Origin: a virus
Lineage: Duplodnaviria; Caudoviricetes
Length of the DNA: 57,675 bases
Virus record (IMG/VR): IMGVR_UViG_3300006174_000002
Span: 1 to 57,675 of that record
Reading direction: 5' to 3' (one strand)
Positions 27,191 through 56,876 of the stretch are shown one piece after another. The notes beneath the pieces were generated by a model. The model did not search any database and was not told where the DNA came from. It saw nothing but the letters and a program-made list of their open reading frames with translations. Both the position numbers and the translations under genes were made by a program. How positions within the stretch are numbered: position 1 is the first letter of the stretch; each line of letters opens with the position of its first letter.

Positions 27191-29314
27191 ATGACTGATG
27201 CAAACGAACCGCTCCCGCCACCGGGCGTTGAGCTGACTGACTGGAACGATTTCCCCAAGAAACGCCAGCAAATCTTCGACGGTGTCAAACAAGCCGTCCA
27301 AGAGTCCTTCCCCCAAAGCCAAGGCGGCGTCCGTCTCGAACTCCATAACCTCGGCTACGAGAACGCCAAACCGTTCTCGCTGGCAGAGCAGAAGAAGGCA
27401 CTGATGAGCGATCAGTACCTGCATCACAAGCTGCGCGGTACGCTGAGGCTGATTGACGAGAAGACCGGGGCTGTGCTGGACGAGCAGCATCAGACACTGT
27501 TAAAAACACCTTATTTAACCGAAAGGGGTACGTTTATTTACAACGGCAGCGAACTGTCCACCATATCTCAAGCGAGGCTACAACCTGGCATTTATTCCCG
27601 GCGCAAGGCAAATGGTGAGCTTGAAGCACATTGTTTTCATCATAAAGTAAAAGTTTTAACGTCTGAAGGCTGGTTGCCCATTGGGCAGATAGTCAATCAA
27701 AAGCTCAACGTGGATGTTTACAGTTACGACTTTGTTAACAAATGCTTTGTTCTTAAACCTGTAGTCGGCTGGTTTAAGAACACGATCAAATCTAGGCTGG
27801 GTCGCGCTGATGTCAATTCCGTGGCTCGTTCTCCTGTTAGCTCTGGTAGCTTCAATCCCAGCGCACTCTGGGTTACACCAGAGCATAAAATGTTGACTCT
27901 TGAAGGCAACAAAATTGAAATTCGTTCAGCCCAGTATCTGACTGTTGTAGAAGAAGAGCCTTCGGCAAATCAATGCCAAGTGCTGTACGGTTCGCTGTTG
28001 GGTGATGGCCATATAAGCACTCACAATCTATATGAAGAAGCTCACAGTCTTGATCAAGTGGACTATCTTCAATGGAAACATGACATGTTGGGCGGTTTTG
28101 TCTCGGCTCCGTTAGGGCATAAGCCTGCTAAAGGCAACCGACAGGAGGTTGTGACATTGAGGACTAAGGCTTGTATATTTATGCAAAAGTTACGGTTAAG
28201 CTTTTACCCTAATGGCGTCAAGATAGTACCTCGCGATCTGATTGAGAATTTGACCGCGTTGGGTTTGGCTTGTTGGTATGGCGATGATGGATACGCCATC
28301 AGATCAAAATACAAAGGAAATGTCTCATCGCATCTTTCAGTCCTTTTGTCTACCAACTGCTTCACTCAGGCAGACGTAAACTGGATTATATCTTGGTTTG
28401 AGCGTAAGTGGGGACTTAAGGCATCAAAGCTAAAAAACTCTAAGGACATCGACCGCGATATGGGTTGGGTCGTACGGCTAGGTGGCGCTGATGCTGAACG
28501 ATTTTTAGATATTGTTGCGCCGTACTTGCATCCCTCATTGAAATCGAAGTTGGCACAGCGTGTTCCTATGGGGCGTTGCATACATGGCGACAAAGAAATA
28601 ACTCGTGTGCGCTATGCATGTAATGCCTGTATGGTAACGCGATACGCGAATGGAAAAGCAAAAGCTCGGGAGCGGCAAAATACGCGTAGTCGATTGGGAC
28701 ATACGGCACTCGCGAAAATGATCAAAACCGGCATTATTGTTGAGGACAATAACCTTGGGGCTGCGTGGGATCGTCGAGTTGCTGCACTTGGTACTGCATT
28801 AACAAAGCTACCTGTCGCATCTGGGACTAAGTTGGTTTTGGCATCTATCCCTTGTGTTTACGATACTAATACCGGTACTAAACTATCTAAAACCAATACT
28901 GCATATGATATTGAAGTGGAAGGTACACACAATTACATTGCCAATGGTGTTTTAGTTAGTAATTGCAACGCTAAGCGGGGATCGGGTCAGTCTTTCCGTG
29001 TGAGTCTGGAGCCCGAGTCGGGCCTCTTCAAACTGAACATCGGTCAGTCCAGTCTTCGGCTGTATTCCCTACTGCATGACATCGGTGTGCCGGACGAGCA
29101 GCTGGAGAAAACGTGGGGTAAGGATTTGTTGGCGTCGAACAAGGCGGCGTACGACTCGCGGGTGTTTGACAAGGCGTACAATCGGTTTGTGCGCCGTGCT
29201 GACCCGGCGGCTAGTCGGGAGCAGAAGGCGGAGGCAATCAAGGCGGCGCTGGCTCAGACGTACGTGGATCACGATACGACTCGGAAGACGCTGCCCAATT
29301 TATTTAAAGAATGA
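27191..29314 (+). CDS. RNA polymerase beta-like subunit, N-terminal fragment, with intein
   Basis: PYLTERGTFIYNGSELSTISQARLQPGIY corresponds to the beta motif P.MT..GTFIING.ERV.VSQL.RSPGV. About 263 aa after splicing. Confidence 0.85.
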   Translation: MTDANEPLPPPGVELTDWNDFPKKRQQIFDGVKQAVQESFPQSQGGVRLELHNLGYENAKPFSLAEQKKALMSDQYLHHKLRGTLRLIDEKTGAVLDEQHQTLLKTPYLTERGTFIYNGSELSTISQARLQPGIYSRRKANGELEAHCFHHKVKVLTSEGWLPIGQIVNQKLNVDVYSYDFVNKCFVLKPVVGWFKNTIKSRLGRADVNSVARSPVSSGSFNPSALWVTPEHKMLTLEGNKIEIRSAQYLTVVEEEPSANQCQVLYGSLLGDGHISTHNLYEEAHSLDQVDYLQWKHDMLGGFVSAPLGHKPAKGNRQEVVTLRTKACIFMQKLRLSFYPNGVKIVPRDLIENLTALGLACWYGDDGYAIRSKYKGNVSSHLSVLLSTNCFTQADVNWIISWFERKWGLKASKLKNSKDIDRDMGWVVRLGGADAERFLDIVAPYLHPSLKSKLAQRVPMGRCIHGDKEITRVRYACNACMVTRYANGKAKARERQNTRSRLGHTALAKMIKTGIIVEDNNLGAAWDRRVAALGTALTKLPVASGTKLVLASIPCVYDTNTGTKLSKTNTAYDIEVEGTHNYIANGVLVSNCNAKRGSGQSFRVSLEPESGLFKLNIGQSSLRLYSLLHDIGVPDEQLEKTWGKDLLASNKAAYDSRVFDKAYNRFVRRADPAASREQKAEAIKAALAQTYVDHDTTRKTLPNLFKE
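27632..28963 (+). mobile_element. intein with LAGLIDADG endonuclease
   Basis: CFHHKVKVLT start, VTPEHK, YGSLLGDG, WYGDDG, YDIEVEGTHNYIANGVLVSN|C end. AT-rich. Confidence 0.92.
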
Positions 29315-29461
29315 AGCGATGGCTTTTGCGGTTGTTGGTGAACGGTTTGGAACGCTGGTGTTTTCTGACGCATTGGATGCCGCTAGGCCGGCACCGGTGC
29401 TTCATGGCTACTTGGTCCGAGTCGATCGACTCGCGCTACAATCTCGGCGAATGGACTACGA

Positions 29462-29719
29462 ATGAGTAAATCCCGTTTCGGACGTTGCCAGGTTTGTGGT
29501 GACATGAACGATCTCAAGCATTTATCCCTTTACGTAATCGGCTCGGAAGGGCTGGACATCTGTCCATCGTGTGAAGTCGTGCTGGTAAATATGGTGCGCG
29601 GGCTAATTGAGGTCGGCAAGCGATGCCGCTTGGGCGGCTATAAGGCTGCCAAAGAAGTGGCTGAAGCGAAGCGTATCCAGGACCTTCGTGAAGCTGCAGC
29701 AATTGAACAACAACAATGA
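29462..29719 (+). CDS. small Zn-finger protein
   Basis: CQVC...CPSC. Confidence 0.6.
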   Translation: MSKSRFGRCQVCGDMNDLKHLSLYVIGSEGLDICPSCEVVLVNMVRGLIEVGKRCRLGGYKAAKEVAEAKRIQDLREAAAIEQQQ

Positions 29720-29973
29720 CTGATCTTACTGTTAAGAATCTCACGGACCTACAAATCTCGATTTCCAGACAGTCCAAGAAGTGGGCTGTATTCGACGGTA
29801 ACTTCGACTGTGTGAAGGACTTCGTTCCGTACACGGACGAACTCACGGCGCTGTCCGAAGCCAAAGCTTGGTGCGCCGAGCGGTCACCACAGGTCCCAGA
29901 AATCGTTTACCCACAGATTACCAAGATGACCGTGTCGTACAGTCAGCAACGCGGTCGGACGAAGCGCAAATGA
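29716..29973 (+). CDS. hypothetical protein
   Basis: Coupled ORF. Confidence 0.55.
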   Translation: MTDLTVKNLTDLQISISRQSKKWAVFDGNFDCVKDFVPYTDELTALSEAKAWCAERSPQVPEIVYPQITKMTVSYSQQRGRTKRK

Positions 29974-30257
29974 AACACCGGGATCATCGCTGCCGAATTT
30001 GCGGCGATTGGCTGAATGAGGATCGAGGGTGCGATCGTTGCGCGCAGGGTGTGCTGAAACAGTTCATCCCGCCGGAATGTTACGAGGAGTTGTTAGGGGT
30101 TGGACGCGGGGCAAAGATTATGGGTATCGGCGCAGACAAGCTTACCCGGGAAGACCTGTATGTGGCGCTTGCCATGGTGGGACGATCTATGGATGTGGCC
30201 ACTCTGCGCCGGGATAAGTGCTCTGAGTTTCAAAAGCAAGTGGCCGAGTTGCATTAA
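29970..30257 (+). CDS. small Zn-finger protein
   Basis: CRIC...CDRC. Confidence 0.55.
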   Translation: MKHRDHRCRICGDWLNEDRGCDRCAQGVLKQFIPPECYEELLGVGRGAKIMGIGADKLTREDLYVALAMVGRSMDVATLRRDKCSEFQKQVAELH

Positions 30258-30283
30258 AATATGAAGACAAATCGACTGATAGG

Positions 30284-30690
30284 TACGTGACCTGTGAATC
30301 ACGTAGACCCAGGCGTCCTGCAGGCGACCTGGGTCTTAACCGCAATTCATTGGTTTCCACCAGTGGCTTGCGTTTAAGAAAGGTCCCATGAAGCGAGAAT
30401 AGTACACATACACTAAACCGGGCTGGGCGGACCTGAAACACGGAGCTCAGTGCTGGAATGAACGAATCCTCACCGATCAAAGCGCGAGACAAAGCGCAAA
30501 GCCTAGATGCTGACAATCCCTTAACCGGAAATGAATAAAGCATTCAGGTGCACAAGCACAACGGACGAATGAGTAAATCGTCCGAATAAATATGCTCCGC
30601 CAGGCCAACGGCGCAGTTTGGTCTAGTTTCAAGGGCTTCTAAGAAACAAGCTCTACGCTCCGTGAGGCATTGCTTCACGGAGCTTCACTT
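30284..30690 (+). ncRNA. candidate large structured non-coding RNA, family unrecognised
   Basis: About 460-nt gap in coding, with a continuous series of stems containing G-U pairs and A-rich linkers, ending in an 11-bp hairpin and T-rich tail. Confidence 0.65.
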
Positions 30691-30724
30691 TCCCCGACGG
30701 TTAACCACAAAACACAAAGGAACT

Positions 30725-31165
30725 ATGAACAGAAAATTCGAACAAGCACTCATGTCTGCGATGGAAGAATTGGAGCACACAACTGACCCGGCACATTCTG
30801 ACTGGTCTCCAGTCAATGCGCGTGTGGTGGCTGTCCTGTCAGCGCTGCGTGGTTACCTGACCGAACACGGCACAACCAACGAGCAGGACGACCTGCTACG
30901 CTCCATCGGTCTGCACGAGGACACGGTGAATGAAGTTCAGTTCACGCTCCCCAAGATGCAGGGATTGTTACTTATGAACCTCTTGGACAATCCTGTGTTA
31001 TCGAAGTCGCTCCGCCATGGTTTCGGCATCAAGACGCCGATTGAGGCGTTGAACCATCCGGATGCACGTCTCGGCGGGCCGGTGCCGGCTCGTGCCCACA
31101 GCATGGATGATGGCACAGGCGAACTGGAAGAACCGGCGTGTGCCGAGTGTGGCTGTCGTCACTGA
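30725..31165 (+). CDS. hypothetical protein
   Basis: AAAGGA upstream of ATG 30725. Confidence 0.65.
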   Translation: MNRKFEQALMSAMEELEHTTDPAHSDWSPVNARVVAVLSALRGYLTEHGTTNEQDDLLRSIGLHEDTVNEVQFTLPKMQGLLLMNLLDNPVLSKSLRHGFGIKTPIEALNHPDARLGGPVPARAHSMDDGTGELEEPACAECGCRH

Positions 31166-31169
31166 CAGC

Positions 31170-31198
31170 TTGAATTCCCGGGGGAGCTCTGGCAGAAT
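31170..31198 (+). promoter_or_regulatory. leaderless sigma70-like promoter
   Basis: TTGAAT-17-CAGAAT-6 nt-ATG. Confidence 0.6.
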
Positions 31199-31204
31199 GC
31201 GGTC

Positions 31205-31717
31205 ATGTTCACGAAAGAAGAAATCGCGAAAGCGACTCGGATCGCCGAGTACATGACCAAAGCTGCCGAGCTTCCCCTCGGAAAACTCGAAGGAAACCCC
31301 AATCTCTGGTCCGACCCAATGCCCCGCTTTAACGCCCCCAACCCCGCCTTCGCCGGCGCTAAAGCCCCGGAAGGTTTCATGGGTAGCTTGGGTACCATGG
31401 CTAAGGGTATGTACCGTGGCGCTGGCGGATTGGCCGCCGCGACGTTCACCGGGCAAAAGGGCTACCAGGGTGCCGCGGAAGGTTTGGCGTACAACACGGC
31501 GCGTCTCGGCCGCGACATGTTCACGCAAGGCCCTCGCCAAGCGTTTCGGAATGCCGGTAACAATTTCTCTCACGATCTGGCAGCGCCGTACCAACGCGCC
31601 TGGCAGAATTACAAAGATGACGGTGGCGCGCAGCAGGCCGTGGCTCCCGCAGCTTGGGCCGGTCGCCAGTGGAAAGACCTCACCACCGGACCTACCTTGT
31701 GGGGTACCGGCCGATGA
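31205..31717 (+). CDS. Gly/Ala-rich putative virion protein
   Basis: N-terminal segment ending MTKAA, then low complexity. Confidence 0.65.
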   Translation: MFTKEEIAKATRIAEYMTKAAELPLGKLEGNPNLWSDPMPRFNAPNPAFAGAKAPEGFMGSLGTMAKGMYRGAGGLAAATFTGQKGYQGAAEGLAYNTARLGRDMFTQGPRQAFRNAGNNFSHDLAAPYQRAWQNYKDDGGAQQAVAPAAWAGRQWKDLTTGPTLWGTGR

Positions 31718-32424: not shown

Positions 32425-32495
32425 TGTACCCAGTTCCCCCGGAAATCGCTTTCCTTGCAGTTCTCGGTCTTGTTGGATGTTGGTACCTGTTGTAA
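32424..32495 (+). CDS. 23-aa hydrophobic peptide
   Basis: MYPVPPEIAFLAVLGLVGCWYLL, TAATG overlap with the RNAP fragment. Confidence 0.35.
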   Translation: MYPVPPEIAFLAVLGLVGCWYLL

Positions 32496-32599
32496 CGCAT
32501 TTGGTTCAAATAATTTACCCGTAGTCGGGTTCTCCCTTTCCTCGGCCGTGTGGTCGAAGGAACTCCCAAAGTAGTTAACCACAAACCAAAGGTCTCAGC

Positions 32600-33046
32600 A
32601 TGAAAAAGTTCCTCACATCAGTTGGCGATTTCTTCGCCTACGTCCCGGTGTCCGTCTATAACTGGGTAGTCATCGAACCGAGCGGATCGCAAGTCAAAAC
32701 CCACCTCGGCCGCCAGGAGGTTCAAACCCAAGAAACGCCCGGCGGTCTCGTCATCGCGCTCAAGACCAAAGGCCTTGAGGTCGAAACGCTGGACGCCGCG
32801 AAATGCGTCACGGTTCCCCTGTCCCAGGACGAAGACGTCCGCGGCTTCTTCGTGGCCGGCGTCCAGGCTGGTGTCAACCTCATGTCCATCGAAGCCAACG
32901 CGCTGACCCAGCAGCAGTTCCGTGCCGATCAGCGTGCCCTGCGCACCATCCGCAAAGCCAAGGAGGCGGCGGAGCGCGCCGAGCAGAAAGCGCAAGCTGA
33001 AGCCGCCGGCAATGTGCCGGTTGGCGCGGTTCCGCAAGCAGCCTAA
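32600..33046 (+). CDS. hypothetical protein, probably highly expressed
   Basis: Strong C-ending codon bias. Confidence 0.75.
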   Translation: MKKFLTSVGDFFAYVPVSVYNWVVIEPSGSQVKTHLGRQEVQTQETPGGLVIALKTKGLEVETLDAAKCVTVPLSQDEDVRGFFVAGVQAGVNLMSIEANALTQQQFRADQRALRTIRKAKEAAERAEQKAQAEAAGNVPVGAVPQAA

Positions 33047-33056
33047 GCAGAACATA

Positions 33057-33086
33057 CCCCCTGCGTTCTTCCGAGAGCGCAGGGGG
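33057..33086. other. strong hairpin without U-tract
   Basis: CCCCCTGCGTTCT-TCCG-AGAGCGCAGGGGG. Confidence 0.7.
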
Positions 33087-33093
33087 ACAATTT

Positions 33094-33402
33094 ATGCAAC
33101 AAAATCAATCAGTCGACGGTATGCGTCCCCTCGGTAATCGGATTCTGGTGGAAGACGTGGATGACCGCGTGGCCGTCTCGGGCGGCATCGTCATTCCCGA
33201 AGCGTCGCGCGAGACTTCCAACACTTCAATTGTGCTGGCGTTGGGTAAGTGCAATCGCAGCGAGAGCGGTGTCGAAACGCCGTTCCGGGTGAAGGTTGGT
33301 GATAAGGTGATGCTCTGTCGGTTCGGTGGCACACCAGTGGTTCGGAATGGCAAGCAATATCGGTTGGTCACGGAAGAAAACATTGTGGCAATTCTCAATT
33401 AA
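33094..33402 (+). CDS. groES: co-chaperonin GroES (Cpn10)
   Basis: RPLGNRILVE, SGGIVIP, VKVGDKV...FGGT, ENIVAIL. Confidence 0.9.
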   Translation: MQQNQSVDGMRPLGNRILVEDVDDRVAVSGGIVIPEASRETSNTSIVLALGKCNRSESGVETPFRVKVGDKVMLCRFGGTPVVRNGKQYRLVTEENIVAILN

Positions 33403-33574
33403 TTATGCGACTCCCTCACACTTGCAAAACGGTCAAATACAAGGAAACCGGTACGGCTACTCTCACGCGCGAACGCACCCGTGTGTTCGGTATGAAAGAC
33501 GGTTCGTGCGTCATGGACACTACGTTCAAGACGGTGCGTGAAGCCAAACACTTCATGGGTTCGACTCGGACGCT

Positions 33575-34129
33575 ATGAGTCGGAACCGATTTACGGCTAG
33601 TGCCTTGCGCAAACTCAGCAAGCACAAGCAGGAGCTCATTGTGCAGTTGATGTGCACGTCGTACGGCATGCCTAGCTTTAAGGACATCAAAGATGTGCCG
33701 GAGTTCGTCAAGTCAGTAACGACTGAGGGCATTGTCGATTGTCTGGACCTCTGGATTGACAACTACTTCGGTTGCGTGCCCGGCGGTTACGAAGAGGTGT
33801 TGATGGAAATCATCATCCGTAAATTTCGTCGTCCAGTTGAGGTCGCGATTAACGATTCAATTCGGAGGTTGAACATCGCCTTTTTGAACGGTCTGTCATA
33901 TACGCCAGAGCCGTACGTGTTGGTGGAACCGTCATACGAGCACGAGGTGCAGATGGTCATTGTTGATTCCAAAATCGGGATCCAGTACTACTCGGACATG
34001 TGCAAACCGTGGAACTTCAAGTTTGTGACGCTAGCCGAATTGGCCGAGCATATTGAGTGCATCTCGGATACGTTACTTCGTCGGTATGAGCTTTTCGACG
34101 TCGCGGCACAGCACGCAATCAAGCTCTAA
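33575..34129 (+). CDS. hypothetical protein
   Basis: 184-aa ORF. Confidence 0.65.
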   Translation: MSRNRFTASALRKLSKHKQELIVQLMCTSYGMPSFKDIKDVPEFVKSVTTEGIVDCLDLWIDNYFGCVPGGYEEVLMEIIIRKFRRPVEVAINDSIRRLNIAFLNGLSYTPEPYVLVEPSYEHEVQMVIVDSKIGIQYYSDMCKPWNFKFVTLAELAEHIECISDTLLRRYELFDVAAQHAIKL

Positions 34130-34260
34130 TTCTAACCGTGTCGCTCCGGCGGCACGGTCCCTTTCGCAGCAATCTCCAGTGTTGCTGCAACCCATAGCCT
34201 GCCAACTTCTGTCAGGTTAGGGTCAAACTCCCAGCTGGAAGGGTCAGTCTTCTCTTGTTT

Positions 34261-35250
34261 ATGAATACCTCAGGCACAAACCAGGTTCAAACAAACATCA
34301 CCCAATCCGCACCGGTTACGCCGCTCCCGCGGTGGCCGCACGACTTCCAGCTCTACTGGACGTTCAACTGCGGATTCTTCAGCGGTGAATTCCTAGTTAA
34401 AATTGAGGATTATGGCTTCAACATCCTCGAAGTCGCAGCCTACATCCGTCCCAGCGAACAAGGCTCCGTCCGTAACACCCTTCAAGGTAGCCGCATCGTT
34501 CGTCGGCAGCCCCAACACGAGCTCGCGCACTATCGCATCATGCAGTTCTCCTACAATGCCATCAACGGCGTGTTCTTCCGCCTCTGCGATGTCTTCGGTA
34601 GCGCGCAGACCGTCTGGCGACCGTTTGACGAGGTGGCCAACAAACTCAGCTCACTCATCCCGGAAGCCCGCACGGCGGTGCGTAACCTCGTGATGCTACC
34701 CACGGTGCAGATCACGGAACGCACGCCCGAACAGATCGCCGACACCAAGGCCGCGTGGCTCGCCGCCGCGGCCGAGGAAGAACGCATGCGCAAGCAGATC
34801 CAGGCCGAGAAGTCCGTGGTATGCGCTAAACAGCATAAACCGGAAGTATTGCCTATACCGCATAAACCGGCCTACGTCTATCCGGGGCGCGTGTTCGGTA
34901 AGAACTCCCCCTCCGTGGAGGCCAAGCCTTACATCAAGCGGCCGGCCAAACCGGCGGTGAAGATGCTCAAGGTGAATCTGCGTCAGGTGCCGTCGCGCCT
35001 GCCGGAAGATTCGGACGGCTCGGATTCCACCTGGCGTTGTATCGCCAGCGTCTCGGACATCTGGTATGGCCTCAGCCACCAGAAGGCAGCACAAGCTGCG
35101 GCACGGTCACGCCAGCAGCAGAAACATCGCAAGCCCGTTTACCATAACAGTCGGGCGATCGGTTACACCGCTCCGACTGAAGCGGTTCACATGATCTTGA
35201 CTCCGGTCAAGAAAGTCCACGCACCTTACGCCGCGCCGGTCGCCGCGTAA
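34261..35250 (+). CDS. hypothetical protein
   Basis: About 329-aa ORF bracketed by hairpins. Confidence 0.75.
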   Translation: MNTSGTNQVQTNITQSAPVTPLPRWPHDFQLYWTFNCGFFSGEFLVKIEDYGFNILEVAAYIRPSEQGSVRNTLQGSRIVRRQPQHELAHYRIMQFSYNAINGVFFRLCDVFGSAQTVWRPFDEVANKLSSLIPEARTAVRNLVMLPTVQITERTPEQIADTKAAWLAAAAEEERMRKQIQAEKSVVCAKQHKPEVLPIPHKPAYVYPGRVFGKNSPSVEAKPYIKRPAKPAVKMLKVNLRQVPSRLPEDSDGSDSTWRCIASVSDIWYGLSHQKAAQAAARSRQQQKHRKPVYHNSRAIGYTAPTEAVHMILTPVKKVHAPYAAPVAA

Positions 35251-35282
35251 CCTTTGTCTCTGGTTCGTCACAATTCTTTTGT

Positions 35283-35323
35283 GGCCCCCGTGCCCAGCGT
35301 TCGCGCTGGTCGCGGGGGCCTTT
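35283..35323 (+). terminator. intrinsic terminator
   Basis: GGCCCCCGTGCCCAGCG-TTCG-CGCTGGTCGCGGGGGCC-TTT. Confidence 0.75.
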
Positions 35324-35346
35324 CCACTTTCTGTTCTCTATCAACT

Positions 35347-35592
35347 ATGCGTATTTTTGAATCTTGGTGTTATTTACCGTTGGTACTCGTTATGGCCGTC
35401 ACTCCGAACTGGACGGGTATGTACGGTATGCACTTCGTGCTGTTCACTGACGTAATTACGCCGGCAATGTATATTACATGGCTGCTACTTGAGGCCTATT
35501 TAACTATTCAGATCGATGAGTTCAAACGACAGGATGCGCTAACGCAGCAACGGTACTCGAATGCCATAGGTAAATTACGCGAGTATAAATGA
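35347..35592 (+). CDS. small membrane protein
   Basis: Two hydrophobic segments. Confidence 0.5.
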   Translation: MRIFESWCYLPLVLVMAVTPNWTGMYGMHFVLFTDVITPAMYITWLLLEAYLTIQIDEFKRQDALTQQRYSNAIGKLREYK

Positions 35593-35852
35593 CATGAAAC
35601 AGCCCTCCCTGAAGCTACAACGCCGTACGTCACGACGCATTGATCGTACGCCGGTCGACCTATCACGAGCTGACTTCGGACCCGAAGATGGGTTCAATTT
35701 CCGCTTGCCAATTCAGCAGCGCCCAGTCGGCGGATTCGCCTGGCGCTACGGTCGTCCAGGAAACCGGCTGACCGTGGGTAAAATGCTGAACGGTTCGGAC
35801 TTGCGGAGCACCGCCTCGGCTGTTACTCATGTTCAGCAAAGCAACATTGTAT

Positions 35853-36493: not shown

Positions 36494-36532
36494 TGGTTGC
36501 GCTGGTTGTCTCGGTTGGTAAACTCAAAATGC

Positions 36533-37283: not shown

Positions 37284-37296
37284 TTTGCGATAGGCT
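37268..37296 (+). promoter_or_regulatory. leaderless sigma70-like promoter
   Basis: TTGCTG-17-TAGGCT-6 nt-ATG. Confidence 0.6.
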
Positions 37297-37302
37297 GCTG
37301 GC

Positions 37303-37784: not shown

Positions 37785-37789
37785 CATTT

Positions 37790-49300: not shown

Positions 49301-50241
49301 TGGATAAAAACTCGGAACGCATCCTGGTGTCACTCTGCGACGCTGGACTAGCGAATCGGATGAACGCGATTGCAGGGGCCGTCATCATCTCTGATCAGAC
49401 TGGGCGTAAGTTGCACGTGTACTGGCCTTTGAATCGGTTCGTGGGCGCCACGGCGACCAGTTTGTTCGACTGGCCCCACAGCATTGTGCTGTTTAGTGAC
49501 TACAACGTCTCGGATACGATGCGAGCCATGCTGGCCACGCGCAACCGCGTCAAGTTCTACAACTGCGGTGTGGACGAGACGGCCACGAACGATTGGCGCA
49601 TGGTGTTGCCGCATGACGATGAGGAGATCGTTTGTATCAAAAGCTGGTACACGCCGGCCGTGTTCCCGCAAGACAGCGAACAGACGGAACGGGCACGGGT
49701 TGCTTTACGCATGCGGGGACTGTTCAAACCATCGGCGCCCCTCAATTCGTTGATTGAGGCCCGATGGAAGAACCTGTCCGAACGTGCCGCGGCTAGGCCC
49801 GTGGTGGGCGTCCATATCCGCTACGGCGACCGCAAGCCAGGTTCGTTCACCGAGTGGGATCCAAAGACCGTGGATGCCTATTCCCGCTCCACACTGGAGG
49901 ACTTCTACAAGATGATGGATCTGACCCTGTCCATCCGGCCAGACACCATGTTTTATCTGGCATCCTACAACCCGGATATTACAACTCAGGTGTTGGCCAA
50001 GTACGGTACGGATCGGATATTCACCGTGACGCCCGGACCGGGTCGGAACACGCCGACCGGCATGATGAGCGACGCGTCGGAATTGCTCACGCTTGGATCG
50101 TTCAGCAAGTTCGTGATCGGCACGGATTGGAGCCAGTTCAGCACGGTTGCGGCCGAGTACGGCAAGTGTCCGTTCATCGAGGCCAGCAACCACCACGAAG
50201 CCCTCAAAACCAGAATCAAATGGTGGATGTCAAAACCCTAA
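49300..50241 (+). CDS. fucosyltransferase-like GT-B enzyme (GT11/GT23/O-FucT clan)
   Basis: GLANRM, VGVHIRYGD, FYLAS, SQFS motifs. Confidence 0.8.
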   Translation: MDKNSERILVSLCDAGLANRMNAIAGAVIISDQTGRKLHVYWPLNRFVGATATSLFDWPHSIVLFSDYNVSDTMRAMLATRNRVKFYNCGVDETATNDWRMVLPHDDEEIVCIKSWYTPAVFPQDSEQTERARVALRMRGLFKPSAPLNSLIEARWKNLSERAAARPVVGVHIRYGDRKPGSFTEWDPKTVDAYSRSTLEDFYKMMDLTLSIRPDTMFYLASYNPDITTQVLAKYGTDRIFTVTPGPGRNTPTGMMSDASELLTLGSFSKFVIGTDWSQFSTVAAEYGKCPFIEASNHHEALKTRIKWWMSKP

Positions 50242-50420
50242 CCCCCGTGCAGCTCCGTCGACGGGTCAAGCAGCTTGAGCGCTGCCTGACAGACGTAGAC
50301 CGATGGCTTGGTGACCGTTACAACGATCACCGGAGTTGCGGCACGGACAAGCCGTGGCACGAGGAGTTTGTTCTGTTGGGTCAGATCATGCGGCGGGTCA
50401 GCCGAACGCTTCGGCATTAG
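50220..50420 (+). CDS. hypothetical protein
   Basis: Small overlapping ORF. Confidence 0.4.
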   Translation: MVDVKTLTPVQLRRRVKQLERCLTDVDRWLGDRYNDHRSCGTDKPWHEEFVLLGQIMRRVSRTLRH

Positions 50421-50510
50421 GGAGTTGCGTCGGCTAGGGGTTTCGGGTAGGGTTTGGGTGTCGCCCCTATGTGCCTGGGCGTGGCATGTTTGAAACTCTG
50501 ACACAACATT

Positions 50511-51122
50511 ATGGATCTGCAAGATTGGCTGTTTTACTGTACGCAAAGTCCTATCGCAGCCAAGCTGTGCGGGTGGGGGTTGCTCTGCTATGGGGCTTGG
50601 TCATACTTCGTGCGGCCTGGCGTCAAACGGCTAATCAGCATGGTGCAGTCCAGCCAACACATGAGCGAAGTGCTGCCGGTGTTGGTCAACATGGCAGACC
50701 AGTTCAAACCAAATGGTGGCAACAGCTTACGAGACGTCGTCGACCGTATCAGCCAGAATCAGATCATCAACACGCTCCGGCACCGTACCATCTGTGCGCA
50801 TCTGGATCTCGCCACGTTTGAGGCTGATGCCAAAGGCAAGTACACTTTCGTGTCTCGGCCTTGGTGTAACTTCACAAATATGGTGCCGAGTCAGGCTTTA
50901 GGTGACGGTTGGATTGCCAGCGTGCATCCTGACGATCGCGACAAGGTCGTGGCCGAATGGCAGCACGCCATTGAGGACAACCGTGAGTTCTATGCCGTGT
51001 ACCGCGTCCTCACATTCGGTCAGGGCGGTATTGTAAGACTGGCAAGCCGGGCATTCCCAGCTGTGGGTTCGACGGCAGACAAATTGGTCGGTTTTGTCGG
51101 TGTAACCACGATTGCTGTATGA
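50511..51122 (+). CDS. membrane protein with C-terminal PAS domain
   Basis: TM helix, PNGGNSLRDVVDRI linker, DAKGKYTFVS..W...LGDGWIASVHPDDR PAS signature. Confidence 0.8.
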   Translation: MDLQDWLFYCTQSPIAAKLCGWGLLCYGAWSYFVRPGVKRLISMVQSSQHMSEVLPVLVNMADQFKPNGGNSLRDVVDRISQNQIINTLRHRTICAHLDLATFEADAKGKYTFVSRPWCNFTNMVPSQALGDGWIASVHPDDRDKVVAEWQHAIEDNREFYAVYRVLTFGQGGIVRLASRAFPAVGSTADKLVGFVGVTTIAV

Positions 51123-51511
51123 TCACTGAACTTGTCACCGAGGTCGTTCCTGAATTAGCCAAGAAACACGGACGGTGGGCGGCTTGGGCCGGCACCGTCG
51201 GCTCGGTTCTCGTCCTCGGCATCAACGCCTACAACGAACGTGAGGCGCAAGCCGTGCAGACCAAGAACAGTGAGACCCGTACCGCGCTGCTCCAGGCCCA
51301 ATCGGAACAGATCCAGGCCCTGAATAATGCGATGAACGATCTGAAGGAACAAGTAGGTGAGCTTCGCGGCAGCATGGGTATCTTCACGACGCGGAGCACA
51401 ATGCCTTCGGTGTCTGCTAGGTGGTCACATCCGACGGTCGCGCCGGTCAACGCTATACAGACAAATGCAGTGAAAGTTGCAGCCCTACTTGAGGAGTTGC
51501 AGAAAAAGTAA
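51119..51511 (+). CDS. membrane-anchored coiled-coil protein
   Basis: One TM helix plus heptads. Confidence 0.65.
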   Translation: MITELVTEVVPELAKKHGRWAAWAGTVGSVLVLGINAYNEREAQAVQTKNSETRTALLQAQSEQIQALNNAMNDLKEQVGELRGSMGIFTTRSTMPSVSARWSHPTVAPVNAIQTNAVKVAALLEELQKK

Positions 51512-51532
51512 ATCTCAGTTTCATTTCAACAT

Positions 51533-51556
51533 ACCCACCCTTGTGGCGGGTTTTTT
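51533..51556 (+). terminator. intrinsic terminator
   Basis: ACCCACC-CTTGT-GGCGGG-TTTTTT. Confidence 0.65.
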
Positions 51557-51561
51557 CATTT

Positions 51562-51753
51562 ATGGCTGAACCCATTATCTTAACGAACTGTGGTAATTAC
51601 GAAGAAGACCCGCACATCTGCGATGACGTTGGTGAAACTAAAGGTCAGTGTGCTAACTGTGGGGCCAAATGGTACGAACACAACCTTGGATTGCTGTTCG
51701 GCTCGGACCTGGAATATGCCCGTCAAATACAGGCATTACGCGGAACAAAATGA
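51562..51753 (+). CDS. small Cys-containing protein
   Basis: CANCGAKWYEH. Confidence 0.55.
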   Translation: MAEPIILTNCGNYEEDPHICDDVGETKGQCANCGAKWYEHNLGLLFGSDLEYARQIQALRGTK

Positions 51754-52013
51754 TTACAAAAACCTTTGATGTGACACGTTCGGTAGTCGTCACGGTCGAC
51801 GAGTCCAAATTCACCCCGGAGTTCCTGCACAACTTCAGCGAGCACTTCCACTCGGTCAATGGCGTCGCAGGACATTTGGAATACCTAGCCGAGTGCATCG
51901 CCGGCGGCTTCATCCGGCGTCGGGATGATTTTCTCGAAGGCTATGGTCACCTCGATCAGTTCGGACTGAAGTTCGAAATTGAATATACCAGCGTCGATGA
52001 ACGCGAAGATTGA
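51750..52013 (+). CDS. hypothetical protein
   Basis: FLEGYG motif. Confidence 0.6.
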   Translation: MITKTFDVTRSVVVTVDESKFTPEFLHNFSEHFHSVNGVAGHLEYLAECIAGGFIRRRDDFLEGYGHLDQFGLKFEIEYTSVDERED

Positions 52014-52175
52014 GGCTCTAGGCCTCAGTTGGCCATTCACCCGTCGTCTCGTCCCAGCCGACGTACAGCTCGCCATCCATCACGTCCATGCGCCCTGGGC
52101 TGACCTCGTCTGGTTAGATCCTAAACGCAATCTGTGGGTGTACATATCCACGCTCCCCATCAACGAAGTTCAACC

Positions 52176-52469
52176 ATGCTCTTACAATACCTCGGACTCG
52201 CCTGTCTGGCCTTTGCCCAAAACGTCGCATTCTCCATCGTCTCTCGCTCACGGAACCGCAGCCACATCGGCTACCACATCGTTGCGGCCATCTTCTCCAA
52301 CGCAATCTGGTTCCTGACGTTCCGTTTCTTGGTGAATCAGAATATGAGTTGGCAGTTGTTCGTGCCCTACACGGCCGGTACCGTGCTGGGCAGTGTGTTC
52401 GGTGTGAAGGTTTCAATGTGGATCGAGAAGAAATTAGGTGCCGAAAGTGATAACCATTTGAAGAAATAA
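52176..52469 (+). CDS. small multi-pass membrane protein
   Basis: Three TM helices, YTAGTVLGS. Confidence 0.7.
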   Translation: MLLQYLGLACLAFAQNVAFSIVSRSRNRSHIGYHIVAAIFSNAIWFLTFRFLVNQNMSWQLFVPYTAGTVLGSVFGVKVSMWIEKKLGAESDNHLKK

Positions 52470-52473
52470 AACT

Positions 52474-52827
52474 ATGCTTAACTATAGCGTCGGTGACAAG
52501 GTGGTTTGTTGTAACGCAGACTTTCCCGAAGGAATCTTGAAATTTTACGAGCAGCTTCCCGTGAAGGACACCACGTACGTGGTGAGAGATATCCGTCTCG
52601 GTGCCGGCTTCGATATGAAGGGCGACATCTCGGTGCTGCTCATCGGTGTTGTGAATCCCAAGGCCGAATCGAAAGCGGCGCTCGAACGCGGCTTCCGAGC
52701 GGATCGGTTTCGCCTCTTGGAGGAGTTGCGCGACGAAAGCCGCCAGCGTCAGGAAGATAAACAGAAGGACTCGAAACCCATTGAGGTCGAGACGGAAGTC
52801 GAAACACCGGAATTCCAACCAGCATGA
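52474..52827 (+). CDS. hypothetical protein
   Basis: VGDKVVC...GFRADRFR. Confidence 0.7.
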   Translation: MLNYSVGDKVVCCNADFPEGILKFYEQLPVKDTTYVVRDIRLGAGFDMKGDISVLLIGVVNPKAESKAALERGFRADRFRLLEELRDESRQRQEDKQKDSKPIEVETEVETPEFQPA

Positions 52828-53045
52828 ACCTACAAGAAGCAATTACCAAAGCCAATGTGATGTTAGACGAGGGGGTCAGCCGTAGCCACGTGTGTTCGTT
52901 TATCAATGAGTTGGCCAGTGCCAAGCTCATTACGAATGCCGAGGCCGACTACTATGCTGACATCCTGGCCGCAGACCGAGGCAATAACGTCCCGGTGCTG
53001 CGTTCCTTATCCCGCGTACTGACTCGGCGGATGCCAACAGCATGA
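52824..53045 (+). CDS. hypothetical protein
   Basis: Coupled ORF. Confidence 0.55.
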   Translation: MNLQEAITKANVMLDEGVSRSHVCSFINELASAKLITNAEADYYADILAADRGNNVPVLRSLSRVLTRRMPTA

Positions 53046-53305
53046 AAGTCGATCAAGCCACAGTTATGAATAATTGGAAAGCCGTTAAAGACGAGTTGCC
53101 GCCTCCGAGACACTTGGTGCTAGTTCTTACCATGCACGAGAAAATCAAGCTCGGCTATTGGGTTCCACGTGAGGATCTGCAGCCAGGTCGCATGTGGTCC
53201 ATTAATGGGCACTGTGGCGGCATCGGTACATCCTGGGAAGTTAAGCCACCAACGCACTGGCACTCGTTGGACGAAATTGCACACGAATCGTATCTAAATG
53301 TTTGA
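53042..53305 (+). CDS. DUF551-like protein
   Basis: W..VKDELP...VLV...PTHW. Confidence 0.6.
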   Translation: MKVDQATVMNNWKAVKDELPPPRHLVLVLTMHEKIKLGYWVPREDLQPGRMWSINGHCGGIGTSWEVKPPTHWHSLDEIAHESYLNV

Positions 53306-53579
53306 CCTCAAAATAATCGTAGATCGCACTCCTGGTATTGATCTGATCGTATCGGACAATCGGCACGATCAGGGCGGTCTGGACACTAAGCAGGAGATGG
53401 CTTTCAAGCACTTGATTCCTTGTGGCGAGTTGGACTATGTATGGCGGGAAATACTCTATGAGTTGGCGTCGCTGCACAACTGGAGCGTCACGGAGACCGG
53501 CTCGGACATCACCTTGCGCAAGGACCTTGCTTGGCTGAAGGCCGTGCCCGACCTGAACAAAACATTAAAACGAGCATGA
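53298..53579 (+). CDS. hypothetical protein
   Basis: Overlapping ORF. Confidence 0.55.
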   Translation: MFDLKIIVDRTPGIDLIVSDNRHDQGGLDTKQEMAFKHLIPCGELDYVWREILYELASLHNWSVTETGSDITLRKDLAWLKAVPDLNKTLKRA

Positions 53580-53830
53580 AGCTCTATGACCGACTCGGTT
53601 ACGATGTTTATTGGAAATTGATGGAAGACGCGGCAGAGCAAGCGATCGTCGCGGATCTGATCGGAGACATGCGGTTCAATGGCACGGATGCCAAAGTCAC
53701 GGCAGCCGGCTATCGCTCCGCCGCGTTCATGTCCGTCGCGGGGCAGAAGTTCCGCGAAGTCAGCCACAACATGACACTGGCCGTCGTGGCACTGGAGCAC
53801 CTCGGTTACACCATCACGCCGACAGCTTGA
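53576..53830 (+). CDS. hypothetical protein
   Basis: ATGA-coupled. Confidence 0.55.
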   Translation: MKLYDRLGYDVYWKLMEDAAEQAIVADLIGDMRFNGTDAKVTAAGYRSAAFMSVAGQKFREVSHNMTLAVVALEHLGYTITPTA

Positions 53831-53855
53831 TTCCCCGCGGGCATGGTGGTAGGCT
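53827..53855 (+). promoter_or_regulatory. leaderless sigma70-like promoter
   Basis: TTGATT-17-TAGGCT-6 nt-ATG. Confidence 0.65.
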
Positions 53856-53861: not shown

Positions 53862-56800
53862 ATGCCCGCTCCATTACGGCCCGCAATCAAAGACAATCAG
53901 CTGCAGGAAGTGCCCGACTCGGAAGTCGAGTACGAACACCTCTCCCCCAACCAGCACCTCGGCACCCACGCCAACCTGGTTCCACTCCAGTCCGCTGTCT
54001 CCTCTGGCCGTGTGTTCTACGGTGCCCGGTTCGCCAATCAGGCACTGCCCCTGAAGACCCCTGAAGCCCCGCTGGTGCAATTGTTGAGCGATACCGACCC
54101 GGAAGGCCGGTCGTTCGATGAAATCCTTGGCAACGAGGCCGGGAACGTCAGGGCGACCCACGAGGGTAGAGTTCATTCCGTGACGCCCGACGAGATCGTG
54201 GTCAAGACCAAGGACGGCGAAATGGTCAAGCATGACACGTACGAAAATTTTCCATTCAATCGTAAAACGACCTTAACACACATCCCGCTCGTCAAAGCCG
54301 GCGACCCCGTGACGCCCGGACAGCTCCTGGCCCATTCCAACTACACCGACAAGAACGGCACCCTGGCCATGGGCACCAACGCCCGAGTCGGTATCGTCCC
54401 GTACAAAGGCCACTCCATGGACGACGCCATCGTCATCTCCACCAGCATGGCCAAACGCTTCACCGCCAACAATCTCTACGGTCACGACCTCTCATACAAA
54501 CGGGGGGTCAAGGGCGGCAAGGCGCATTACACTGGGCTGTTCACCCACAAATTCGTGAATGAGCAGCTGGACAAGCTGGACGACGACGGGGTGGTGAAGG
54601 TGGGACAGGTATTGAAGCAGGGCGATCCGTTAATCTTGGCGACTCGGCCCCGGGTGGTTAGCTCGACGACGGCGCAATTGGGTCAGCTCTCCAAGCACAT
54701 GAAGAACGCACGGAATGATGCCTCTGTGCTCTGGGATCACGAAACACCTGGTACGGTGCTGGACGTGCATCGGACGCGCTCTGGGGTCAAGGTGAACGTC
54801 AGCAGCGATGCCCCCGCGGAAGTGGGCGACAAGATCGTAGGTCGATCCGGGGCCAAGGCCACTGTGTCGACCATCGTCCCGGACGAGCACATGCCGCGTA
54901 CCGTGGATGGTAAGCCGTTGGAGATTTTACTCAATCCTCAGAGTTTGGTGTCCCGTATGAATCCGTCGCTGGCCTATGAGATTATGCTCGGCAAGGTGGC
55001 TCGGAAGACAGGCAAGACCTATAAGCTACCCTCGGTGCTGCCGAAGGGTCAGGCTTGGTATGACTTTGTGAAGGGCGAGTTGGACAAGGCGGGCGTCTCG
55101 GACAAAGAGGAAGTGTTCGATCCGTTGCTGAATCGGAAGCTGGAAAACCCAATCACGGTTGGTGATATGCATTGGCTCAAGCTCCATCACTCCTCGGAGA
55201 GCAAAGTGAGCTCGCGCGGTACTGGGAGTTACAACGCGGATCAGCAACCAAGCCATGGTGGTGGTGACATGGCTCAATCGAAGCGCATGTCTGGGTTGGA
55301 CAGCAATGCCCTGATGTCCTCCGGCGCGTACAACCTGCTCAGAGAGGGTGCGACGCTAAGGGGTACTAAGTGTTTCGACGTGCAGACGGAAGTACTGACG
55401 CGACGCGGCTGGTTGTTTTGGAAGGATGTTACGGGGTCAGATGAACTATACACGCAGGATGGTTCAGGTCGTGGTTTTTTCGAAGTGCCACAACTCCTGC
55501 ATAGGTACCAGTACACAGGTGACATGTATGGTTTTGAGGGTCGCTTCTTAGATTGGCTAGTCACGCCTGACCATAAACTTTGGATGCAGCACATCAAAGC
55601 TACCAAGGGTCCGAAGATGCGGTTCAAAACAGCAAAAGAACTACATGGTAGAACTTTCTATATCCCGCAATTCGGCTCAGTGTATCCCGGCACATTGTCT
55701 GATGATTATCGTGTGCCGATTGTCAGTCAACCTGGTTGGCGTTCAAAGGGGTTTTCAATACCAATTCACGATTATTGCGAGTTGCTTGGCTGGTGGCTAA
55801 GCGAGGGTTGTTCTATGATAGATACGGATGCAGGAAAACGTGGTTATACTCAAATATCACAATCAGAATCTGCTAATCCGAAAAAACTTGAAACTATTAT
55901 ATCGTTGGTTGAACGAATTGGTCTAAAATATAATCATTTGCGATGTGGTGGTTACTCCAGGGGTATTCGTATTCGCAATAAACCACTGGCAGCACATCTG
56001 CGTCAATATGGGACTGGCGCTGCAAATAAGCGTATTCTACCCATTATTTTTGAAGCCCCTCTTGCTGCGCGTTTGAAGTTAATTGATGCTTATATTTTAG
56101 GTGATGGTCACACGCATGTGCATAACAACACGACTAGCCGAAGGGCCAGTAGCGTATCGCGCGGGTTATTGGACGATATGCAACGGTTGGCTGTTTTATC
56201 AGGTAATGGCGGCATCATTTCGCTGATCGACAGATCGCGGGTCACAACCTCTGCATTGAGAGACGGTAGACCGCTTAACTGCCTACCTATATGGTACATC
56301 GGTTTTGCAGATAATCGGCGTAACGCCACGGTGGATGGGTGGCATCCTTCACCGAATATGAGGCATGCATATATCGAACACTATGACGGTACGGTCTACT
56401 GCGCGACCATGTCTACCGGATTGCTATACGTACGACGCAACGGCAAACCTATGTGGTCTGGAAATTGTGACAATTATTGGCGAGAGCTGCGCCAGGGGCA
56501 TGAACCCAAGGAACCCGGAACGCCTTTCATCTGGGAGAAGTTCAAAGCGTTGCTGCAGGGTGCTGGGTATCACGCTCGCCGGCTGGGCAACGGCAAGGAG
56601 CGGTTGCAGTTCCTTACGGAAAAGGACCTTGAGAAGCATAAGCCGATTCGGGTGCGTACGGGTGATCTGGTGGACATGAACGATCTGAGCCCGGTTAAGG
56701 GCGGTTTGTTCGACCCAGCGCTTACGGGTGCTGGGGCATGGGGTTTCGTACAATTACCTCATTCCATTCCAAATCCAGCGGCCCAGGACGTTGTCTGCAA

Positions 56801-56876
56801 GCTTCTCGGTTTGACAGAACGGCAATATCGCGCGGTGCTCGCTGGCGAAGAAGACATGCCGGATAACTCGAAGTAA
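53862..56876 (+). CDS. RNA polymerase beta-like C-terminal fragment fused to a beta'-like N-terminus, with intein
   Basis: NQALPL, GTLAMGTN..YKGHSMDDAIVIS, GDKIVGRSGAK, LLNPQSLVSRMN, LKLHH..SKVSSRGTGSY..QQP, then PVKGGLFDP..G..WG...LP. Confidence 0.9.
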   Translation: MPAPLRPAIKDNQLQEVPDSEVEYEHLSPNQHLGTHANLVPLQSAVSSGRVFYGARFANQALPLKTPEAPLVQLLSDTDPEGRSFDEILGNEAGNVRATHEGRVHSVTPDEIVVKTKDGEMVKHDTYENFPFNRKTTLTHIPLVKAGDPVTPGQLLAHSNYTDKNGTLAMGTNARVGIVPYKGHSMDDAIVISTSMAKRFTANNLYGHDLSYKRGVKGGKAHYTGLFTHKFVNEQLDKLDDDGVVKVGQVLKQGDPLILATRPRVVSSTTAQLGQLSKHMKNARNDASVLWDHETPGTVLDVHRTRSGVKVNVSSDAPAEVGDKIVGRSGAKATVSTIVPDEHMPRTVDGKPLEILLNPQSLVSRMNPSLAYEIMLGKVARKTGKTYKLPSVLPKGQAWYDFVKGELDKAGVSDKEEVFDPLLNRKLENPITVGDMHWLKLHHSSESKVSSRGTGSYNADQQPSHGGGDMAQSKRMSGLDSNALMSSGAYNLLREGATLRGTKCFDVQTEVLTRRGWLFWKDVTGSDELYTQDGSGRGFFEVPQLLHRYQYTGDMYGFEGRFLDWLVTPDHKLWMQHIKATKGPKMRFKTAKELHGRTFYIPQFGSVYPGTLSDDYRVPIVSQPGWRSKGFSIPIHDYCELLGWWLSEGCSMIDTDAGKRGYTQISQSESANPKKLETIISLVERIGLKYNHLRCGGYSRGIRIRNKPLAAHLRQYGTGAANKRILPIIFEAPLAARLKLIDAYILGDGHTHVHNNTTSRRASSVSRGLLDDMQRLAVLSGNGGIISLIDRSRVTTSALRDGRPLNCLPIWYIGFADNRRNATVDGWHPSPNMRHAYIEHYDGTVYCATMSTGLLYVRRNGKPMWSGNCDNYWRELRQGHEPKEPGTPFIWEKFKALLQGAGYHARRLGNGKERLQFLTEKDLEKHKPIRVRTGDLVDMNDLSPVKGGLFDPALTGAGAWGFVQLPHSIPNPAAQDVVCKLLGLTERQYRAVLAGEEDMPDNSK
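55371..56465 (+). mobile_element. intein with LAGLIDADG endonuclease
   Basis: CFDVQTEVLTRRGW start, VTPDHK, LLGWWLSEG, YILGDG, YVRRNGKPMWSGN|C end. Confidence 0.92.

Follow-up and report, generated by a model that had tools for sequence, protein, structure and literature searches.

A bacterial-like RNA polymerase beta subunit divided among three dispersed genes in a large uncultured freshwater phage

The contig IMGVR_UViG_3300006174_000002 (57,675 bp, analyzed at full length and referred to below as the window) comes from a large uncultured freshwater phage (Duplodnaviria; Caudoviricetes) and carries the beta subunit of a bacterial-type multisubunit RNA polymerase (RNAP) as three separate genes, beta1, beta2, and beta3. 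A preliminary description, made by reading the letters without database searches, had placed N-terminal, fork/rifampicin-pocket, and catalytic parts of bacterial RpoB in this order in three + strand open reading frames (ORFs); all three were found at the coordinates it gave (Table 1), with intervening spacers of 2.4 and 21.4 kb. As far as we can find, they represent a real, conserved, and apparently undescribed split variant of phage multisubunit RNAP. With a probability of roughly 0.8, the window is part of a phage that has a single RNAP derived from that of Salmonella phage Arash, the pieces of which would be dispersed, separately translated, spliced, and assembled non-covalently.

In Arash (OQ632216), gp206 (1525 amino acids [aa]) contains beta and the front of beta', including the motif AADYDGD, and gp216 (606 aa) contains the rest of beta'. 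We propose that the ancestor was of this type, with one gene encoding beta and the front half of beta' as a fusion, a separate gene for the C-terminal part of beta' (beta'C), and phage sigma factors. The fused gene would have been cut into separate genes that kept their N-to-C order and strand and came to lie kilobases apart among other genes, and the middle piece of beta' (with the DxDGD motif) and beta'C would lie beyond the contig end. Each piece would be translated on its own, two LAGLIDADG inteins would be excised by cis-splicing, and the mature chains would assemble without covalent joining into an active, bacterial-like core that uses phage sigma factors.

The window, a single contig, stands alone for its genome in this analysis and is probably part of a phage genome about 180-205 kb long; its plausible genes lie nearly all on the + strand. 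Six records of relatives were compared. G001 (185,656 bp, with terminal repeats and rated 100% complete) was taken from IMG/VR, where a search with piece 2 yielded one relative among 12 pattern matches, located in G001. G002 to G006 were searched with Arash proteins; G002 (204 kb) and G006 (208 kb) are complete, G005 is rated 86% complete, and G004 is a fragment rated 63% complete.

Pieces of beta and beta' in the window

Piece 1 (beta1) matched positions 36-190 of the NCBIfam RpoB model PRK00405, which has 1096 positions (E = 1e-9), and positions 44-151 of phrog_24349; Pfam Rpb2_2 was only weakly detected on window proteins (E = 0.0057). The protein ends with TLPNLFKE and is 43% identical to the N terminus of a G001 protein and 68% identical to G002 beta1. 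Piece 2 (beta2) matched Pfam RNA_pol_Rpb2_3, the fork domain (E = 3.5e-9), and RpoB chains in the PDB (E = 7e-16), and aligned to residues 420-587 of E. coli beta and PRK00405 positions 314-495. Its start is likely the ATG at 31714 rather than the TTG at 31654, because the ATG overlaps the stop codon of the upstream ORF and a relative's protein aligns from residue 21. Piece 3 (beta3) begins with MPAPLRP and matched Pfam Rpb2_6 (E = 1.3e-52) and PRK00405 positions 535-1048; its residues 14-501 correspond to residues 649-1141 of a 1266-aa bacterial beta (RpoB chains, E = 5e-52).

The motifs GDKIVGRSGAK and MDDA are present in piece 3; the preliminary description had seen the two catalytic lysines and the Asp-Asp motif retained. 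In an alignment of 26 sequences, K324, K332, and D188 are invariant (26/26) and D187 is conserved in 25/26. Relaxed selection had been named there as a sign that would speak against the proposed reading; the catalytic residues are instead kept across these sequences.

Beta2 starts with MITAAD and ends with VVGIPE, and its N-terminal ~45 residues are Pro/Ala-rich and not conserved. When 12 stand-alone beta2 proteins were aligned, the N-terminal 45-90 residues were found to be hypervariable, and the C termini ended at one conserved spot; the new termini look like loose tails. In the rifampicin-pocket segment (residues ~150-180 of P0002) the window reads LEEINPLHLVEQNRRITQMGPGGI and differs from the corresponding 24-residue stretch of bacterial beta by D>E, H>Q, and S>T. 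We take these three positions to be classic rifampicin-resistance sites. Judged by this segment, the window enzyme may be insensitive to rifampicin.

The claims that much of the lobe/protrusion region is missing and that the polymerase is minimised did not hold. A profile of 11 fused beta1+beta2 relatives aligned to residues 23-198 and 274-461 of a 1100-aa cyanobacterial beta (E = 1.5e-29), the unaligned middle of the profile being similar in length to that of the cyanobacterial protein, and piece 3 aligned to residues 511-1012 of the same beta. By these alignments, the lobe is present, and in combined length the three pieces come close to a complete minimal bacterial beta. After intein removal, chains of about 263, 236, and 639 aa would remain. 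The best whole-protein scores against PRK00405 were 36.7, 65.6, and 214.1 bits, far under the whole-protein cut-off of 896.

The end of piece 3 reaches beyond beta, which the preliminary description had overlooked. It is the start of beta', roughly 85-90 residues left over from a beta-beta' fusion, so that the beta/beta' junction is covalent: the tail matches gp206 to about residue 1107, falls in the Rpb1_1 region, and has its continuation in fused relatives. Indeed, gp206 residues 482-1107 are matched by the piece-3 orthologue of G001, Pfam Rpb1_1 matched gp206 residues 1022-1260 (E = 6.5e-7, below the curated cut-off), and in fused relatives the catalytic part of beta' comes directly after the segment homologous to the window's tail. 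When the 136-aa tail was searched alone, no Pfam family was found, and the PDB gave five hits with E values of 0.65-1.3, none significant. The piece-3 C termini of 26 proteins (the window and 25 other split forms) fall within about 20 aa of each other.

Pieces 1 and 3 are interrupted by inteins. Their removal had been implied earlier with no locations given; both are now mapped (Table 1). They have the features of class 1 inteins (Cys1, a T-P-x-H-K block, a terminal Asn, Cys at +1, and precise insertion), from which we infer that both can splice. Intein 1 matched Pfam LAGLIDADG_2 (E = 2.6e-27) and TIGR01443, the intein C-terminal region (E = 9.6e-9). It is missing at the same site in the G001 orthologue, and same-site inteins 33-40% identical to it occur in P0254, P0196, and P0217, which according to blast maps are one beta1+beta2 fusion and two fully fused chains. 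Intein 2 matched LAGLIDADG_3 weakly (E = 0.0088), is 65% identical to the P0021 intein, and is missing from G001 and, judged by length, from 95 of the 119 relatives listed for piece 3. P0007, which among the listed relatives of piece 3 is the closest (83% identity), carries its intein ~40 residues upstream and none at the window's site. The RNAP gene family as a whole is very intein-rich: blast maps placed intein-2-like inserts at roughly ten different sites (P0126-P0275), and the 3089-aa chain P0255 contains about six intein-like inserts.

A third LAGLIDADG_2 intein was seen outside the RNAP genes, in a 926-aa DEAD/Helicase_C helicase (window 1118-3898) with a C-terminal winged helix. It occupies residues 171-532 (nucleotides 1628-2713), right after the DEAH box (DEAH, then C...THN, then C). 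The helicases in the G001 and G002 neighbourhoods are intein-free.

Relatives and the history of the cuts

The best phage matches to piece 3 were Arash and Vibrio phages D69, D181, and D148 (31-33% identity, E values down to 7e-59). None of the 132 records that match piece 3 covers at least 80% of it, and 91 mycobacteriophage records among them appear to be intein-only: all those listed match just residues 501-881. Pieces 1-3 map in order on phrog_24349 and fit it (E = 2.7e-53) far better than the PHROG families labelled 'RNA polymerase beta subunit', which gave local matches only (best E = 9.7e-24, over residues 309-398). By homology, the window belongs to the lineage of Arash and D69 and is not an isolated case. 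It has in common with these phages that beta is bacterial-like, that the junction between beta and beta' is covalent, and that beta' is cut after the DxDGD barrel. In Arash and D69, beta and the front of beta' are undivided (~1525 aa), whereas the window lineage has been cut at least three more times (between beta1 and beta2, between beta2 and beta3, and inside beta' domain 1), with pieces kilobases apart.

The same division was found in other records. G001, G002, and G005 hold five pieces: beta1, beta2, beta3 with the beta' tip, beta' middle, and beta'C. G003 holds four, its beta3 being fused to beta' middle, the G004 fragment has the last three only, and G006 has the undivided Arash form (1846 aa). 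In every relative record the pieces lie on one strand and in N-to-C order, with gaps of 1.3-56 kb; beta'C was present in 6/6 records, and the window's pieces are 43-68% identical to their orthologues. In G001 (see Table 1 for the map) every part of the Arash query has a single match, the matches do not overlap, and two sigma70-like genes are present. The G001 beta1 is the head of a 1401-aa ORF (L002:5799-10004; G001 102974-107179) that ends at the beta2 start. Its extension of ~1100 aa matches Acb1, an anti-CBASS phosphoesterase (E = 3.5e-6, at the cut-off), as well as 2'-5' RNA ligase-like proteins and DUF6624. The beta1 of G002 is likewise extended, by ~250 aa.

Of 100 window ORFs, 26 have collinear homologues in G002, among them genes that lie between beta2 and beta3; hence the scattering of the pieces is old and stable. 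With G001, 7/100 window ORFs have homologues, three of them being the RNAP pieces.

We also surveyed how widely the cuts are distributed. Among the 119 listed relatives of piece 3, 95 have the split form (626-701 aa), nine continue into the catalytic domain of beta' (PF00623), and the remaining 15 exceed 1000 aa, mostly with intein families. Piece 2 matched 1807 cluster representatives at E ≤ 1e-3, of which 160 remained at E ≤ 1e-30, and the lineage comprises 194 stretches in IMG/VR. For a beta2 census the best 150 matches were mapped by local blastp; 143 with a near-complete beta2 were kept (7 dropped), which together with the window gave 144 rows. Beta2 is fused on both sides in 65 rows and cut on both sides in 41, including the window; 25 rows are cut only at the beta2-beta3 junction and four only at the beta1-beta2 junction, and nine were left unassigned. 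Undivided chains without an intein are about 1460-1485 aa long, and many fused forms have in-frame inserts of roughly 100-520 aa at the beta1-beta2 junction.

A tree of the beta2 region was built from the same rows (a short alignment of 194 columns; IQ-TREE quick search, LG+G4, unrooted, support by Shimodaira-Hasegawa-like approximate likelihood ratio test [SH-aLRT] only). One branch (SH-aLRT 100) sets apart 61 rows, among them the window, none of which (0/61) is fused at the beta2-beta3 junction; both sites are cut in 37 of these rows and the beta2-beta3 site alone in 21, and three were unassigned. The minimum number of changes on the tree was five for the state of the beta2-beta3 junction and 23 for that of the beta1-beta2 junction. 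We read this as one main, old fission between beta2 and beta3, then repeated fission or fusion between beta1 and beta2. The preliminary description was right in seeing a fragmented phage multisubunit RNAP and mistaken in regarding it as independently fragmented. The case is not an isolated one, since hundreds of metagenomic relatives in the Arash/D69 lineage share the cuts.

Spacers, neighbouring genes, and expression signals

Table 1. Positions of RNAP pieces, inteins, spacers, neighbouring genes, and putative signals in the window, and of the RNAP pieces in G001
Feature	Position	Strand	Description
Beta1 precursor gene, 707 aa	27191..29314	+	RpoB N-terminal part split by intein
Intein 1, 444 aa, residues 148-591	27632..28963	+	Cys1, TPEHK block, ...VSN then C+1, LAGLIDADG_2 endonuclease
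Beta2, 236 aa	31714..32424	+	End of lobe, fork, rifampicin-pocket region
Beta3/beta'-tip precursor gene, 1004 aa	53862..56876	+	Double-psi barrel, intein, beta end, first ~85-90 residues of beta'
Intein 2, 365 aa, residues 504-868	55371..56465	+	Cys1, TPDHK block, ...SGN then C+1, two LAGLIDADG-like motifs
C-extein of piece 3, 136 aa	56466..56873	+	Last part of beta, then beta' N terminus
Spacer 1, 2.4 kb	29315..31713	+	About six small ORFs, function not assigned, and structured ORF-free stretch
Spacer 2, 21.4 kb	32425..53826	+	About 40 genes, several syntenic with G002
GroES	33094-33402		Cpn10, E = 2.4e-20
EamA protein	36056-36493		Single EamA domain
554-aa protein gene	43132-44796		No Pfam/PHROG family; 50% identical to G002 protein
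1053-aa protein	44799-47960		Five Big_9 repeats
GT2 glycosyltransferase	47960-49300		Conserved in G002
PAS-domain protein	50511-51122		Conserved in G002
Promoter-like TTGCAA-17-TAGAAT	27156..27184	+	Ends 6 nucleotides before beta1 ATG; generic scan and own pattern
Promoter-like TTGAAT-17-CAGAAT	31170..31198	+	6 nucleotides before ATG of ORF 31205-31717; own pattern, not flagged by generic scan
Promoter-like TTGATT-17-TAGGCT	53827..53855	+	6 nucleotides before beta3 ATG; own pattern, not flagged by generic scan
Intrinsic-terminator-like hairpin	56891..56914	+	9 pairs (7 G-C) and T run, just past piece 3
G001 beta'C	1.7-4.7 kb		1018 aa with intein
G001 beta1	103.2 kb		Head of 1401-aa ORF
G001 beta2	107.3 kb		242-aa ORF, begins at previous ORF's stop
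G001 beta3	131.5 kb		634 aa, no intein
G001 beta' middle	162.8-165.4 kb		1128 aa with intein

No Pfam or PHROG family was found for the ORFs of spacer 1 except for a weak DUF6510 match, and blastx of both spacers against all proteins collected here, including those of the relatives, gave no matches and so no link between the spacer ORFs and the in-frame inserts seen in relatives. A GNAT gene also lies within spacer 2. For the whole window, the tRNA scan gave 0 genes and Rfam gave 0 matches at the gathering score. Upstream of the RNAP genes, at 18229-19350, there is a TnpB-like gene (Cas12f1-like TNB domain, E = 8.8e-25; phrog_506 'transposase', E = 3.2e-39), near which no TnpA was recognised in Pfam and PHROG scans of the window ORFs.

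Promoter-like hexamer pairs precede beta1, beta3, and ORF 31205-31717, the stop codon of which overlaps the beta2 start. The common arrangement, TTGnnn-17-(T/C)AGnnT-5/6-ATG, stands before five gene starts of the window (13680, beta1, ORF 31205, 37303, and beta3). The G002 orthologue of the 13680 gene has the same hexamer arrangement, and upstream of the G002 beta1 orthologue we found TTGCCA-17-TAGTAT-6-ATG; in G001 a similar site was seen, by eye, only at the beta' middle gene. The pattern was chosen post hoc, after the sites were seen, and generic promoter counts were not above chance when compared with shuffles (6 vs 4.9 and 5 vs 4.1). A looser pattern gave 9 matches on the + strand and 14 on the - strand compared with a mean of 3.6 in mononucleotide shuffles; overall counts were judged not above chance, and only the exact placement of these sites at gene starts is suggestive. 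The spacing of 5-6 nucleotides between hexamer and ATG suggests leaderless mRNAs. Shine-Dalgarno motifs are rare upstream of the ~95 window ORFs, and many starts are preceded by A/T-rich runs.

Sequencing runs were compared over window positions 26000-45999, where gaps in the RNA libraries carry no meaning. Three RNA libraries yielded contigs at least 99% identical to parts of beta1, ORF 31205, and beta2; with DNA carry-over possible, these contigs lend weak support to expression of the pieces. One run also gave a contig joint from 26138 to 35942 (side 21, depth 2.9), which is too faint to interpret.

The strongest spot in all three RNA libraries was the ORF-free stretch 30300-30690 between beta1 and beta2, where the DNA run is flat at 17x. 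Its contigs cover 30367-30666 in X2 (depth 41.7), 30369-30519 in X3, and 30408-30633 in X6; such contigs leave the strand and ends of the RNA unassigned. The predicted fold of the + strand has an energy of -145.4 kcal/mol (z = -5.3 vs shuffles; -3.6 for the - strand), and a 12-pair hairpin at 30657-30683 closes the stretch. No Rfam match was found in 30200-30750 at E ≤ 1, and blastn of 30290-30710 against the fetched loci of the relatives gave no homologue. We regard this stretch as a candidate abundant structured RNA. A second hot spot common to the three libraries, at 42664-43389 (depth 23.5 in X2), spans the gap before the 554-aa gene and the first ~260 nucleotides of that gene.

Alternative explanations, known polymerases, and significance

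Several observations weigh against a single, dispersed Arash-type enzyme. As the preliminary description had noted for the DxDGD piece and sigma, the window contains no catalytic piece of beta', and neither beta'C nor sigma was found there either, by Pfam on 95 ORFs or by tblastn with seven queries (no match at E ≤ 0.01); we infer the complete enzyme from relatives whose pieces are 43-68% identical to those of the window. A scan of 142 of the 257 G001 ORFs revealed neither alpha nor omega. Both window inteins lack the usual penultimate His (...SN and ...GN). Finally, the architecture labels of the census rest on predicted protein lengths, so that ORFs at contig ends could be mislabelled. With respect to the first point, the window ends 0.8 kb past beta3, and the distance from beta3 to the beta' middle gene is 12 kb in G002. 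The catalytic piece had been expected outside the window, and beta' pieces are indeed present in all five relatives' records searched.

The pieces could instead serve more than one enzyme, either replacing or complementing parts of host RNAP or belonging to two paralogous polymerases as in phiKZ. PhiKZ-like phages are reported to carry two sets of split subunits (PMC7598289, PMC7824862), and neither alpha nor omega was seen in the scanned G001 ORFs. We nevertheless consider such sharing very unlikely: the matches of the Arash query in G001 are single and non-overlapping, the pieces sum to exactly one beta-beta', and the closest undivided relatives hold them in one chain.

A slightly less probable explanation is that the pieces are joined into one beta chain after translation or at the RNA level, by split inteins, trans-splicing, or bypassing. 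The abundance of inteins in this gene family, with up to about six inserts per protein, would make this attractive. However, the termini of the pieces carry no intein halves, Pfam Hint/intein signals are confined to the cis-inteins, and the N-terminal 45-90 residues of stand-alone beta2 proteins are hypervariable. No contig of the RNA libraries links beta1 to beta2, which is a weak argument as contigs drop rare forms.

Still less credible, in our view, is that the genes are decaying remnants in a phage that uses the host polymerase with its own sigma factors. Many large phages do carry sigma factors and no RNAP (PMC7824862), and the window by itself, with no catalytic beta' piece, could be taken for such a case. 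Against this, the reading frames are intact, the catalytic K324, K332, and D188 are invariant, the same cuts recur in complete genomes that keep all five pieces, and the pieces belong to the small set of genes that the window and G001 have in common. A chimeric assembly juxtaposing unrelated fragments, conceivable for a single metagenomic contig with no known end repeats, can practically be dismissed given the same order in four other independent split-gene records, the collinear synteny with G002 over the whole window, and a DNA run (perhaps from the source sample and thus not independent) that covers 26000-45016 with one contig at even depth. We therefore favour a single polymerase of Arash descent, assembled from dispersed pieces.

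Among well-described phage enzymes, those of phiKZ and AR9 likewise have beta/beta' equivalents encoded by several dispersed genes and no alpha or omega. The phiKZ/AR9 virion enzyme consists of five core polypeptides (PMC7598289), and its beta is in three pieces (PMC7824862). These enzymes are far more diverged, with no recognisable sigma (PMC7598289), whereas the window's relatives have sigma70-like genes; that the window polymerase is the more bacterial-like of the two kinds was correctly anticipated. Unlike phiKZ and AR9, the window lineage has close undivided relatives, which makes its fission recent enough to trace.

The mReC phages are also uncultured and large, with bacterial-like beta and beta' alignable to cellular enzymes. 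The study that described them (Weinheimer and Aylward 2020, PMC7481178) retained only COG0085/COG0086 hits 800 aa or longer, so split forms were excluded; all mature pieces of the window are shorter, and neither 'split' nor 'intein' occurs in the available text of that paper. The 142 scanned G001 ORFs gave no match to the mReC capsid (PF07068, gp23-type) or terminase (PF03237) at E ≤ 1e-4. For Arash, mass spectrometry showed RNAP chains and a sigma to be present in virions, and the available text annotates the RNAP genes without discussing their architecture (PMC10585845). In the main texts of the literature searched we found no paper on a divided form of the Arash lineage, and a 2026 jumbo-phage review mentions neither 'Arash' nor 'mReC' (PMC13282480).

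The NCBIfam beta/beta' fusion models match pieces 2 and 3 as well. Large RNAP subunits tolerate fission and fusion in cells, as seen in archaeal B''/B', cyanobacterial rpoC1/rpoC2, and the Helicobacter-type rpoBC fusion. Those cases involve a single cut or a single fusion, and the genes are adjacent; the phage lineage has up to four cuts and a fused junction, with pieces 1.3-56 kb apart. By linear extrapolation from the archaeal models TIGR03670 and PRK08565, the beta2-beta3 cut lies no more than a few tens of residues from the start of the 599-position model TIGR03670, presumably the model of the C-terminal B' half.

One may speculate that the polymerase is a modular kit, in which the cuts are not neutral and serve as docking points for added domains, separate promoters time or gate the assembly, and small chains are easier to package and eject than one of 1525 aa. 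Docking is suggested by the ~1100-aa extension of G001 beta1 and the inserts at the same junction in relatives, and easier packaging by the presence of the Arash enzyme in virions; taken together we find this idea rather unlikely.

In phiKZ and AR9 the fission is too old for its course to be traced, and the assembly of the chains in the absence of alpha is an open question (PMC7598289). In the lineage described here, one group that can still be aligned with bacterial RpoB and RpoC holds the whole series: one-gene forms, forms with one, two, or more cuts, in-frame inserts at future cut sites, and many inteins. Three questions thus come within direct reach of experiment: which cuts a bacterial-type RNAP tolerates without loss of function, whether fusion of beta to beta' takes over the role of the alpha platform, and which course gene fission and dispersal take in phage genomes. 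The scattered layout, moreover, appears to be the normal one for a big and barely described group of phages.

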